NCBI GenBank assembly: GCA_030390025.1
Contig: CM059432.1
Coordinates: 4,402,001-4,466,000 of the forward strand
Direction of reading: 5' to 3'
From: Squalus acanthias
Lineage: Eukaryota
Length of the DNA: 64,000 nt
Below, one piece after another: positions 28,275-51,879 of the stretch. The position numbers and the translations under genes are program-made. How positions within the stretch are numbered: position 1 is the stretch's first letter; the number at the start of each line of letters is the position of its first letter. The notes beneath the pieces are model-generated. The model was not told the DNA's origin. It was given only the letters and a program-made list of their open reading frames with translations, and searched no databases.

Positions 28275-28725
28275 TCTCGGCCGTGACCCAATGGGTAGCA
28301 CCCTCATCTCCAGCGTCAGAATGTTGTGGGTTCAAGTCCCACTCCAGGAACTTGCAGCACATAATCTAGACTGGCACACTGAGTGCTGCACTGTTGGAGG
28401 CACCGTCTTTCAGATGAAACGTTAAACCGAGGCCTCGTCTGCCCTCTCAGGCGGGCTTGAAAGATCCCACGGGCGCTATTTGAAGAAGATCAGAGGAGTT
28501 CTCGCCAGTGTCCTGGCCAATATTTATCTCTCAACCAACACCACTAAAAACAGATTATCTGGTCATTATCATATTGCTGTTTGTGGGAGCTTGCTGTGCA
28601 CAAATTGACTGCCGCGTTTCCTACATTACAACAGTGACTACTCTTCAAAAGTACTTCATTGGCTGTAAAAGCGCTTTGAACATCCTGAGGTCGTGAAAGG
28701 CGCTGTAGAAATGCAAACCTCTCTT
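28275..28725 (+). mobile_element. Deu-domain SINE
   Basis: Full match to the window's SINE family. Confidence 0.85.
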
Positions 28726-28902
28726 TGTGTCAGCTGTGGCTCAGTGGGTATCTCTCTCTAGGTGGGAGGGGCTAGGAGTGAGCAGGTGCTGCTGGGTGCT
28801 TGATTACTGCAGGGAGTTGGAGTGAGTTTGTAAAAGGTTGGTGGTGGGTTTTTGTTTTTTTTCCAGGTTTTAGGGCCTTTTTGGTCCTTAAACAACAGCC
28901 AG

Positions 28903-31314
28903 ATGGCTGCTGAGGAGCACGGAGTGCCCGGCCCCTCAGAGGACAATGTTCCCAGGATGAATTTAATCAGGGGAGAAAATGATGGGGGAAGGGAGAAAAA
29001 AAAGGCCCAAAGATTTGGGCTGGGGCCCCAGGAGGTTTGGAAAAGTAAACACGGTGGTGGTTCAGTGCGAGGATAAGGAGATACGAGCTTGGGATATTAT
29101 CCAGGCGGTACATGAGGACTGTGGCGAGGGAAGCTGCTTTGCCTGCCGACCAAAGCCGAATGTTGGGTTCGAGGTGACGGTCAGTGGCCGAGAGGAGGTG
29201 GAAAGACTTTTACTCAGTTTGAAGGTTGGTGATCTGTTCCTGGAAGTATCTCTGCTATATTCTGAAGAGGTGGTGGTCTCATTCTTAAACCTGCTTAAAT
29301 TCTTAAATTCTTAAATATTGAGGACGATGTGGTAAGCAAAAAGTTGGAGTCATGGGACATTAAAATTTGCTCGGCAATAAAGAGGAGATACTATCCAGGA
29401 ACACGGGTAGCAGATGGAACCCGTTATGTAAAGGTGCGGTTCCCAGAGGGGGTGAAGTCATTGCCGTATAGCATGAAATTCGAGACAATGGAAGGAGTAC
29501 AGTACTTCCGGGTACTGCATGATAACCAGGTGAAGGTTTGTTACTATTGTCTTGGACACGACCATCTTGTAAGAAACTGACCAGACTTGTACTGTTATAA
29601 CTGCGGCGAGTGTGGCCACATCGCTCGGAGCTGCAAGGCGGAGAGCTGTGGGGTGAGTCACAAAGGCCTCACCCGCTGTGAGTGTGCGGCAGAAGGAAGC
29701 CCCTTGAGTGACGAGGAGATGGGAGAAGGAGCAGGAGGTGTGAGTGGAGCGGCCGGAGGAGTGGAGCAGGTGGAGGACACAGCTGGTGAATGGAAGGAGA
29801 AAAGAGCACAGGAAGAGGCAGAAAATTGTGGAGCAGAGAACAGGATGGAGATGGTGGAATACACACCTAGTATGGTGGAAAAGGACAAAGACAGCAGAGG
29901 GCAGCATGGGTCGAAGGCAGAGTCGAGCCATAATACGGCTCGGCTCTCCCTAAAGAATCTGGTGTCCGCGGGGGGAGAGGAGGCGGGAGCGGGGTTCAGG
30001 GTAACTGTAAGTATTCCAAAGAAAGACGGAGATTTGGAGATCTCGGGGAGCATGAGGGGGCAAGACAAGGAGAGGGTGCAAGAGGCAGGAGCCTTAAAGG
30101 GCCAGCACGACGGGAGCAGGGAGACAAAGACACCAGAAGGGAGCAAGATAGGTGCAGCCACACCATTGTCCCAGAGAGAGAAGAAACGGGGAGCAAGGGT
30201 CAGCGGTGGAGATGAGGCCGAAGGGCGTGGCACTGTTGGAGAAACTGTGATAACAGGAAGACTCTCTAAGGGAGATTATGGGCTGGATTTTCAATGACCC
30301 GTGGAGTCGGGTTTGGAGGCATGTGGGGGGTTAAAGTTGCAGATTCGGGGGTCCCGACCCCATCCCGCCTCCATTCCGCCTCCACACAATTTTGACAAAA
30401 TCGGTTGCGGGGTTCCCGACTCCGTCCCGCCTCCAAGAGGCGCGAGAGGCCATTAAAGCCCTTAACTATCCCTAAATTGACTCTGTAATGCCATTTTGAA
30501 ACGTTTTAGCTAGTTTAACCCTTTTCCGACGTGAAGTATACCTGATGTGAAACACGCCAGTGAAACCTGGCGGGAGCACAAGTGGACAGCTGACTATCAG
30601 CTGCAGGTCCACTATTACAACGGAGATGTGATGAAGGTAGTAGTAGTATTAGGTCTGAAAGTCAACTCTGATGCTGCTGCATTGAATGTCTTCAGAAACT
30701 GCCTGGCCTTTGCTGTGAGAGGACCTGGATGCAAAAAAAATTCTCTCTCTCTCTTCTCTCTCTCTCTCTCTCTCTGTCCTTAGAGCTGCTGCTCATTTTG
30801 CATCCCGGTCCTCTCACACCAAAAGCCAGGCAGTCTCTGAGACCAGGCAGTCAGTCTCTGACCTGCAATAATGACATCATCAGAGGCGACTTTCAGACTG
30901 AAACCACTAATTGGTTCATGGGTTCCCACATGCTGGAACTCAATTACCCAATTAAGTGAAAATTGCATCATTCATCCACATTAATCTGGAGTCGGGGGGG
31001 CAACACGAAATGTGGGTAACACGACCCCAACCCGACCCCAAGACAAAATCCAGCCCTATGTATCTGACGGGGAGCAGGGACGGGAGGTTACAGAAGAGCT
31101 CGAGAGTGAGGAGTCAGAGGGGGACAGAGACATGGAAGTGGGGGGTGGGGTGGCATCGTGTGGAAAGGGAAAGGTTAGTGAGGGGCAGAAGGAGGGAGAA
31201 GGGGCAGCTCCTCGGCCCAAACCTAATATAAGGAAGAGGCTGAAACTGCAGGGAAGGTTCAAACAGGAGGTGAAAAAGAGCCGGAGGCTGCAGGAGAAAG
31301 CAACAGCTGCCTGA
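28903..31314 (+). pseudogene. Disrupted Tx1/L1 ORF1 (gag-like, CCHC zinc knuckles)
   Basis: DGTRYVKVRFP..LPYSMKF..YFRVLHDNQVKVCYYCLGHDHLVRN*PDLYCYNCGECGHIARSC followed by an acidic low-complexity tail. There are frameshifts near 29000 and 29300, a stop at 29578 in a Cys position, and a MITE insertion. Confidence 0.8.
30280..31056. mobile_element. PIF/Harbinger-type MITE inserted in ORF1
   Basis: Perfect 12-bp TIR GGGCTGGATTTT/AAAATCCAGCCC. TSD is TAT at 30277-30279 and 31057-31059. Confidence 0.92.
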
Positions 31315-31593
31315 AAAGTTGGGAAGGAGCATGAGAGGAGGGAAGGGCCGGAGATTAAATGATGGGGGATTATCAGGCCCACTTCCCTTATTTGGAGCCA
31401 TGATTACTGATCAATTTTTAAAGTACAATAGATTAATATATGTTATGGGAGACAAGTTAAACGTCAGGTTTTGATGTTAATATGTGGTGGAGGAATGGCT
31501 GTGCAGAGCGGCGGAATGGATTTGTATGATACAATGGAATGATCACAATGTTGTAAATGTTTTTAATGCTCAATAAATAATATATTAAAAAAA

Positions 31594-32040
31594 AGTGGGT
31601 CGCACTCTCGCCTCTGGGTCGAGAAGGTTGTGGGTTCAAGTCCCACATCAGAGACTCGAGCACAAAATTCTAGGCTGAAACTCCAGTGCAGTGCTGAGGG
31701 AGTGCTGCACTGTCGGAGGTGCCGTCTTTCGGATGAGACGTTAAACCGAGGCCCCGTCTGCTCTCTCAGGTGGACGTAAAAGATCCCATGGCCACTATTT
31801 CGAAGAAGAGTAGGGGAGTTCTCCCCGGTGTCCTGGCCAATATTTATCCCTCAACCAACATCACTAAAAACAGATTATCTGGTCATTATCACATTGCTGT
31901 TTGTGGGATCTTGCTGTGTGCAAATTGGCTGCTGCATTTCCTACATTACAACAGTGACTTCAAAAAGTACTTCATTGTCTGTAAAGCACTTTGGGACGTC
32001 CTGAGGTTGTGAAAGGCGCTATAGAAATGCAAGTCTCTCT
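31594..32040 (+). mobile_element. Remainder of the Deu-domain SINE whose first bases lie at 28727-28750
   Basis: gtgtcagctgtggctcagtgggta joined to gcactctcgcctctg... reconstitutes the SINE head. Confidence 0.88.
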
Positions 32041-32663
32041 TCATGGTTGTTCTTATTAATAAGCAATAGAAATTATATAAATGGATTTAAATGTTCTATT
32101 CTTAGCAAAGAAAGGTTGAGCTGTGAAAAAGGGGAGAAGAATAGAAATCAAGTTGGCCTTGAAATTATACTGTGAGAGTATTAGCGTATAAATACTCAAT
32201 GCACTCATACAAAATGTCTTTGTTCACTAGTTTAAAGACCCACTTAAAATAATTTTTATTTCATGCCATGCTGGCATTGTGTAACAAGAAAGACTCAAGG
32301 ACTATTCCTGCAAGTAAATAATCACCGTTTATAAAGAGGAACATGACATTTTGACAGTGCAGATATTTTAAGAATATTAATGAGACGTTTGTGGATCATT
32401 TGGGGAGATTAGAGAGGAGTTCAGGGGGTATGAAATGATGAATTGACTCCTGTAAGTTGTGCAGTTTTTGCCTAAGTGTAAGCCCATGGAAGTCTGGAAT
32501 CAATAAACATAGATCCAGTGTATCTGGATCCGTCTAAATAACAATTCAGTCCGACTAGTAATATGGCCCTGGGATTACCTCACGTACCCTTTGATCCTAT
32601 CTCACAATCCTACTTCAGTCCTTCGAAAGTGCAACAGATGGGTGAAACGGTTTGAGTGTCCCG

Positions 32664-51269: not shown

Positions 51270-51695
51270 GGGGTCGCACTCTCGCCTCTGAGTCAGAAGG
51301 TTGTGGGTTCAAGTCCCACTCCAGAGACTCGAGCACAAAAATCTAGGCTGACACTCCCAGTGCAGTACTGAGGGAGTGCTGCACTGTCGGAGGTGCCGTC
51401 TTTCGGAATAGACGTTAAACTGAGGACCTGTCTGCCCTCTCGAGTGGACGTAAAAGATCCCATGAGCAGGAGAGTCCTGACCAATATTTATCCCTCAACC
51501 AACATCAATAAAAAACAGATTATCTGGTCATTATCTCATTGCTGTTTGTGGGAGCTTGCTGTGCGCAAATTGGCTGCCGCATTTCCTACATTACAACAGT
51601 GACTACACTTCAAAAAAGAAGTACTTCATTGCCTGTAAAGCGCTTTGGGACGTCCGGTGGTCGTGAAAGGCGCTATACAAATGTAATTCTCTCTT
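51270..51695 (+). mobile_element. Deu-domain SINE
   Basis: Near full-length family match. Confidence 0.85.
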
Positions 51696-51879
51696 CATTT
51701 TTTTTGGGATGGTGTAGAGAAACAGAGAAACAGAGGTTGGGTTGTGAGGCAGCAGTTGGTCCGACTGCCTGTATTGTCCCTCATTCTGCACACTATCCAA
51801 CCTGATTTTGAGCGGGATCATCCAAGAGAATCCATTCAGCCCATGCTGTTTTCAGTCTGAAATCTGTCTACATTCTTAT

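Follow-up and report, generated by a model that had tools for sequence, protein, structure and literature searches.

An ORF1-only element of Tx1 type in the A-box region of a SINE head in Squalus acanthias

In a 64,000-nt stretch of Squalus acanthias DNA (GCA_030390025.1, contig CM059432.1, positions 4,402,001 to 4,466,000 of the forward strand; hereinafter the window), a short interspersed element (SINE) whose head derives from a tRNA is split in its A-box region by a second retroposon that carries the first open reading frame (ORF1) of a long interspersed element (LINE) but almost nothing of ORF2. Does this insert represent a single decayed copy of an autonomous LINE, or a non-autonomous family that prefers such sites? 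On balance we favour the second answer, in which both claims hold jointly and the element is a HAL1-like non-autonomous derivative of a Mutsu-related Tx1-clade LINE with a preference for the SINE A-box. By analogy with known ORF1-coding non-autonomous LINEs, the shortened element probably borrows its copying enzyme from a full-length relative.

The insertion and the ORF2 deletion

The insert between the SINE halves measures 2,843 nt (element 28751-31593, plus strand), and removal of a miniature inverted-repeat transposable element (MITE) and one TAT leaves 2,063 nt, in agreement with the element of about 2.07 kb, with 5′ untranslated region (UTR), CCHC-bearing ORF1, AATAAA, A-tail and target-site duplication, that an initial annotation of the letters alone had described. 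On its left, the 5′ piece of the host SINE (28728..28749, plus strand), recognized by direct reading and by a pattern count over the window, retains an intact A-box, TGGCTCAGTGG, at 28737-28747; on its right, the remaining host SINE (31601..32045, plus strand) holds the B-box (31633-31643), body and tail, so the placement of the insertion in the A-box region of a tRNA-derived SINE head is confirmed. An exact 7-nt duplication, AGTGGGT, lies on both sides (28743..28749 and 31594..31600, plus strand), its left copy corresponding to tRNA positions 14-20. The element’s first letters resemble the next letters of the SINE, so a 16-nt duplication with three mismatches (left copy extending to 28758) is also possible and would shift the 5′ end from 28750/28751 to about 28759. 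The annotated division of the SINE holds for the site itself but not for the letter after the right AGTGGGT, which is C and not A; the context there reads AGTGGGT-C-GCACTC, and the window SINE at 51271 has the same C. The start of that second SINE copy (51270-51698), GGGGTCGCAC, corresponds almost exactly to the point of insertion at 28749; neither a head nor an A-tail precedes it, and it too has the C of 31601.

Within the element, all on the plus strand, the 5′ UTR (28751..28902) is followed by ORF1 (28903..31314; about 540 codons without the MITE, and broken) with two CCHC zinc knuckles (29539..29637), by remnants of ORF2, and by a 112-nt 3′ UTR (31475..31593) with AATAAA at 31572-31577 and an A-tail that starts at 31587 (A-run 31587-31594). 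The Pfam zf-CCHC model matches at 29590-29637 (E 3.3e-4, 21.1 bits against a cut-off of 20.8), and the first knuckle ends in a premature stop. A search with the ORF1 core gave 858 proteins at E <= 0.001, with a best identity of 55% and the named ones from teleosts and bivalves; a close ORF1 protein, at shark level, was not among the matches of this search or of another, in which the best reached 65% over 58% of the query. Relatives could be read together with their DNA context at 14 loci (L001-L014; 12 metagenome contigs and two contigs of metagenome-assembled genomes, MAGs). Their ORF2 carries APE, reverse transcriptase (RT) and zf-RVT domains and is, among solved structures, closest to human L1 ORF2p (E 4e-80). 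Homology of the CCHC-knuckle ORF1 to that of these APE-RT two-ORF elements, together with the AATAAA, the A-run and the 7-nt duplication, makes the window element a probable member of the Tx1 clade of the L1 group. A long terminal repeat element or provirus was rejected as an identity, the HIV nucleocapsid matches and one ‘Gag polyprotein’ label reflecting the knuckles only. Animal Tx1-like LINE sequence under Flavobacteriaceae, Serratia and Aeromonas MAG labels (L013, L014, P0018) is host contamination of public bacterial genomes.

Other copies of the family were read from contigs of four of 24 listed public runs (X1, X4, X13 and X16, each from a different one of the organisms A, C, E and D); X16 may be an RNA run. 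Although 20 of the 24 runs, from eight studies, contain part of the stretch, none reaches half of its words (best share 0.47), and none is therefore the window’s own sample. ORF1 is dead in the window copy, being disrupted at five places: a frameshift near 28996, a local duplication at 29296-29312, a TGA at 29578-29580, the MITE and a TGA at 31312. Other copies in the public runs differ from the window at each ORF1 break (letter absent at 28996, T at 29580, C at 31312). Because they read C at 31312 and some have one extra G at 31363, which brings the ATG at 31359 into the frame of 31400, the family’s ORF1 probably ends at the TGA 31360-31362, overlapping the predicted ORF2 start at 31359; ORF1 and ORF2 of the relatives likewise abut or overlap.

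Both ends of ORF2 are retained around a deletion junction at 31408..31409 (plus strand). The 5′ remnant (31359..31407, plus strand) consists of a leader and Met-Ile-Thr at 31400, and the 3′ remnant (31409..31474, plus strand) of the last 21 codons and a stop, DQFLKYNRLIYVMGDKLNVRF*. The six whole ORF2 frames among the relatives span 1,279-1,323 residues from stop to stop, from which we infer that about 3.8 kb of ORF2 is missing. As initially noted, endonuclease and RT are absent, since tblastn with the ORF2 of six relatives found no remnant of either in the element (best E 0.079).

The existence of a long form, from which nearly all of ORF2 has been deleted in the window copy, is supported by contigs that depart from the element at this point. 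In the loose-end table of contigs against the element (24 rows listed of 1,774), loose letters appear behind 31407 in one X13 contig (ATTGGTCT) and before 31410 in 14 contigs of X4 and three of X13, all among the matches listed. These ends meet within 2 nt, which supports an ORF2 deletion and gives its limits. Translated by hand, the letters behind 31407 extend the Met-Ile frame of 31400 as Thr-Leu-Val-Ser, like the start of an endonuclease-type ORF2, and match the starts of the relatives’ ORF2 (MILLMSLNVNG in L013, MVVICSFNCNG in L010), 18-27 residues past a first Met. Those before 31410 contain no stop when read in frame with the terminal peptide (X13, EKNLKMVFY; X4, KRNLKIVFY), although nine codons free of stops prove little alone. 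Compared with seven relatives’ ORF2 ends, the window’s last 21 codons are outscored by only five of 2,006 stop-ending window peptides and 25 of 2,000 shuffles. The initial guess that GDKLNVRF* might be the last codons of a deleted ORF2 is thereby borne out, and the ORF2 start (about 31359-31407) turns out to be retained as well. With ORF1 kept, ORF2 internally deleted and both element ends preserved, the organization is that of a HAL1-type derivative. Both long-form sides end in TTACA, which suggests that a microhomology jump made the deletion; the TG at the junction of the window copy is an imperfect fit.

Spread of the short form

The family is multicopy. The four runs yielded 15,643, 15,468, 1,904 and 334 matched contigs, and in each of them more contigs fall in the 90-95% identity class than in any other. 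Copies without the MITE exist, and the MITE-less joint 30276->31057 occurs in contigs of all four runs, which makes the MITE a later addition.

Of 33,568 contig pieces, 32 are listed individually; the only one of these that covers the deletion junction, X16 record 24, carries the short form and bridges the junction in one piece over 31364-31526 (44 letters to one side of it and 117 to the other), showing 10 differences and one gap letter. We therefore consider it likely that the short form spread as a non-autonomous family. Two points weigh against this: the short junction is seen in that one listed contig only, and the long form is also multicopy, so that the short form may be a minority. Accordingly, the non-autonomous family proposed in the initial annotation gains a shared short form in a bridging contig from another organism, but not a count of copies.

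The best-surviving alternative, which we nevertheless regard as unlikely, is an autonomous and possibly SINE-targeting Tx1 family whose ORF2 was lost once, in the window copy, during or after insertion, the short form never having spread. The long-form ends in 14 X4 and three X13 contigs, among the matches listed, fit this account, and the bridging contig could be the orthologous locus before it took the MITE. However, that contig, at about 94% identity, belongs to a small run, and it is unlikely that such a run would assemble just the one orthologue among the many copies of the family. The long-form ends are also fewer than contigs with the variant letter at 31456, 46 nt away (14 versus 77 in X4 and three versus 14 in X13, among the matches listed), and none appears among the six X1 rows listed, although these comparisons give a hint only.

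Several further searches returned nothing for the family: a 23-nt element pattern had no match in metagenome contigs or GTDB genomes, a viral scan gave 41 candidates of which none was confirmed, a search for a partner ORF2 by its last 40 codons gave four candidates with none at E <= 10, and a search for short ORF1 fragments gave one candidate that was not significant. Summed contig depth is about level from 5′ UTR to tail with a dip at the junction bin, but parts cannot be ranked by contig depth and it was not used; nor was the absence of loose ends at 28751 and 31593 from the 24 listed rows. Joints of about 28746->31594 in X1 and X4 were set aside as evidence, since any intact SINE gives them. 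A protein cluster, P0017, holds a 428-residue ORF1 relative on three Logan contigs of 1,935-1,938 nt, which could be another ORF1-only form or the product of assembly breaks.

Target preference

The host SINE is abundant in the window, where its family makes up 17 stretches of at least 70 nt (about 8% of the window) and its head pattern occurs seven times against 0.01 expected; the other six heads are uninterrupted and run straight into the body. The part right of the insertion (31601..32045) is 82-93% identical to the closest other long copies in the window. The Rfam tRNA model finds no match at E <= 10 in two intact copies of this SINE, from which the head is judged degenerate, and ARAGORN and Rfam over the window found no tRNA and no Rfam match at gathering score. 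The SINE is a candidate SacSINE1 / Deu-SINE, to judge from a putative Deu domain and tail. The two are alike in a tRNA-like head with A and B boxes, both motifs being present here and aligned to the tRNA-Lys of L011. SacSINE1 / Deu-SINE is described as about 450 nt long, with a tRNA-like head bearing A and B boxes, and abundant in cartilaginous fish (PMC5499810). A complete older SINE copy (28277-28726), 82% identical, directly adjoins the 5′ end of the interrupted one.

Ten of the 14 relatives with DNA context lie in RNA genes. At eight of the 14 loci (L001-L003, L005, L006, L008, L009, L014) 5S rRNA lies directly at the junction, with a duplication of 8-9 nt where both ends are clean (L005, L006). 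Two further loci lie in tRNA genes, with the insertion just after the D-loop: in L010 (6124-6174) the tail runs into a 5′-cut tRNA (Rfam E 2.6e-5), and in L011 (1425-1465, 7633-7701) it runs into an intron-type tRNA half (E 0.3), while the first half of a tRNA-Lys, of which the contig also has a complete copy, precedes the L011 5′ end. No RNA gene is visible at L004, L007, L012 and L013, three of which are without visible ends. The lineage of these relatives thus habitually inserts in RNA polymerase III (Pol III) units. L011 is flanked by two different tRNAs, Lys and a Tyr-like one that contains an intron, and L010 and L011 are AT-rich, probably invertebrate Tx1-like LINEs. L014 shows, over 520-740, an element tail, the 3′ part of a 5S gene, spacer, and then the 5′ part of the following 5S gene with a further element, so that neighbouring 5S units are both occupied.

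Within the family, a second locus comes from X1 record 1 (576 nt, minus strand, depth 39), which aligns to 28730-28958 with 27 differences and 12 gap letters and has 355 letters left over. Record coordinates run in the record’s own direction, as seen from three other minus-strand records: the clipping of X13 record 15 and of X16 record 19 falls at the indel near 30157, that of X4 record 28 at the loose letters before 29250. On that reading, the 355 leftover letters belong upstream of the SINE head, and X1 record 1 would be another locus with a different flank and the same SINE head before the 5′ UTR. Readable 5′ flanks then carry the SINE head at both of the two loci available (the window and X1 record 1), and one 3′ flank is readable. 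A real preference for the SINE site seems to us fairly probable, if a little less so than the spread of the short form. Two readable loci are too few to call the family target-specific, a term applied to Tx1 families in which one repeat flanks over 20% of the copies (PMC4494074). The targeting of tRNA-like sequence that the initial annotation had envisaged is accordingly upheld in part, by both readable 5′ flanks and by the 10 of 14 relatives in 5S or tRNA genes, but the loci are few, and co-amplification of SINE and element as one unit, though improbable, might also give such flanks.

A number of observations count against the favoured reading. The second SINE-head locus is found in one contig only, with 21 aligned letters on the SINE side (the tool’s bridging rule asks for 31) and an unseen 3′ end, and the identity of its unaligned end is itself derived from the three other minus-strand records. 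X1 record 2 ends 11 letters upstream of 28760, and these letters disagree with the window, which is uninformative or mildly against targeting. The 14 relatives amount to about ten families, and L004 has no RNA gene upstream. In L010 and L011 the A-tails join the tRNA at A21/G22, 7 nt past the window’s join at A14; the same distance separates the window nick (before A14) from the nick in this tRNA-inserted pair (before A21/G22). Scored against these two relatives alone, the window’s terminal 21 codons are not significant (outscored by 82 of 2,006 peptides and 266 of 2,000 shuffles). In an unrooted ORF1 tree, made from a 50-row set that a length filter reduced to 46 rows and that L009 and L012 did not enter, the window falls outside the teleost/5S group (100/98) and is not firmly joined to the tRNA pair, a grouping of tRNA-inserted with bivalve-like rows that leaves the window out reaching only 87/79.

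Some of the same points would suit an ORF1-only non-autonomous family with no real target preference, its A-box site being due to chance or to a weak preference for a local motif. About 8% of the window consists of this SINE, only two 5′ flanks are readable, X1 record 2 differs upstream of 28760, and L004 lacks an RNA gene upstream though its close relative L005 sits in 5S rRNA. Against this, chance would give this SINE position to a second locus only about once in 1,000 (seven heads per 64 kb, 7-nt window), and 10 of 14 relatives lie in Pol III genes; we consider such indifference to the site rather improbable, more so than a single loss of ORF2. Least probable of all is hitchhiking, in which one insertion was followed by amplification of a SINE-element-SINE composite through the L2-type tail of the SINE or segmental duplication, so that shared flanks record one event: the flank of X1 record 1 changes at the SINE 5′ end, which fits this as well as an independent insertion, but the element retains its own AATAAA and A-tail, and its relatives insert sequence-specifically into RNA genes with short duplications.

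Under the favoured reading of a non-autonomous, A-box-preferring family, a two-ORF parent would exist or have existed in these sharks, its two ORF2 ends being seen and its middle presumed. One copy would have lost the stretch of ORF2 between about codon 17 and the last 21 codons, the deletion itself being visible in the window. As in HAL1, HeT-A and Sponge elements, the 2.06-kb form could be transcribed from its own 5′ UTR, polyadenylated at AATAAA and coated in cis by ORF1 protein, and the parent’s ORF2 protein could copy the short RNA by way of the retained 3′ end. A Pol III origin of the element’s RNA was rejected, the 5′ UTR having no B-box and showing T-runs near 28850. The parent’s APE endonuclease would nick GCTC|AGTG, a site seen in the A-box, and the other strand 7 nt further on, giving the duplication; target choice in Tx1 elements is mainly set by the endonuclease (PMC4494074), and the ORF1 of such non-autonomous elements has been proposed to multimerise with the partner’s proteins (PMC5786205). 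With the insertion holding A-box and B-box 2 kb apart, the interrupted SINE copy should be silent. Covering about 8% of the window, the SINE would be a cheap and abundant landing site. The window copy later decayed and took the MITE. More tentatively, and with less confidence than in the favoured reading, a tRNA-targeting Tx1 lineage may have moved to the A-box of a hugely abundant tRNA-derived SINE, acquired there a harmless target in nearly limitless supply and bred a 2-kb ORF1-only parasite, at high copy number in several sharks. If so, each insertion would split a SINE Pol III promoter, and one retroposon system would silence another, a LINE’s parasite landing in a SINE.

Known systems and neighbouring repeats

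Mutsu is a 5S rRNA-specific Tx1-clade LINE of teleosts (PMC5340908, PMC3706591), searched for as two-ORF elements of 4.5-7 kb (PMC5340908). The ORF1 core of the window element is 39-47% identical to those of the 5S-inserted two-ORF elements L001-L003, L005, L006 and L008, which are putative Mutsu elements, judged from their target. These loci and the window element share the ORF1/ORF2 arrangement, a short A-tailed 3′ UTR with AATAAA, a short duplication and insertion in a Pol III unit. Unlike them, the window element lacks ORF2, lies in the tRNA-type A-box of a SINE and falls outside the teleost group (100/98); with a tRNA-type SINE head rather than 5S at its flanks and 2,063 nt with ORF1 only, it is not itself a Mutsu element.

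ORF1-coding non-autonomous LINEs are listed as HAL1 (L1 clade), HeT-A (Jockey) and Ag-Sponge (CR1), and Tx1 is not named in that list (PMC5786205); HAL1 arose several times in mammals (PMC5753468). Like these three, the window element joins an ORF1-bearing 5′ part to a 3′ end by internal deletion and needs a partner’s ORF2; unlike them, it has a Tx1-type parent and an apparent site preference, its spread being read here from one contig. HAL1 proper, with a mammalian L1-clade parent, does not apply, the nearest named ORF1 relatives being from teleosts and bivalves and some relatives being inserted in 5S or tRNA genes.

Known Tx1 targets include DNA transposons, LTR elements, microsatellites, satellites, U2, U5 and 5S (PMC4494074). 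Tx1L in Tx1D and Tx1-Mar with SINEU in Mariner-N4_AMi resemble the present case in that Tx1 LINEs land in other repeats and non-autonomous passengers share the target (PMC4494074), but no SINE or tRNA A-box is among the targets named in the available text, and SINEU is non-coding (PMC4494074). Targets linked to tRNA are shared with Dewa, of Tx1 type, in the spacer of tRNA-Leu arrays (PMC3706591), and with Dada DNA transposons, which use the A-box at nucleotides 8-13 (PMC8869645) and hence the same promoter box. Dewa inserts outside the tRNA, and Dada is a cut-and-paste transposase system with its duplication at 8-13, whereas that of the window element is at 14-20. tRNA-targeting elements of NeSL type are also known (PMC4640811). 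The ORF1-only habit and repeat or RNA-gene targeting are each known; their combination was not found in the literature searched, whose accessible text contains no report of an ORF1-only Tx1 or of a Tx1 in a SINE A-box, although Repbase or the target tables of PMC4494074 may record such a family. Nor does it report Tx1 inside tRNA genes, which bears on L010 and L011.

If confirmed, the finding would place Tx1 among the clades that give rise to ORF1-coding non-autonomous LINEs and would extend the list of Tx1 targets by a SINE promoter, with the known mechanism of target-primed reverse transcription unchanged. Should the short family have many copies, it would offer a natural test of whether a retained ORF1 helps an RNA to capture the partner’s ORF2, and of whether APE specificity tracks whichever look-alike of an ancestral RNA-gene target is most abundant.

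The MITE (30280..31056, no strand assigned) is 777 nt long, with 12-nt perfect inverted ends, GGGCTGGATTTT, and a 3-nt duplication, TAT, on both sides, and we take it to be PIF/Harbinger-like. Its middle (30653-30898) contains nested inverted repeats (45 and 24 nt) that enclose a (TC)n tract; contigs span this part in X16 and hardly or not at all in X1, X4 and X13, where repeats were skipped, so the difference is possibly technical. The wider setting is vertebrate DNA rich in CR1-, L2- and Penelope-like fragments, so named from their translations.

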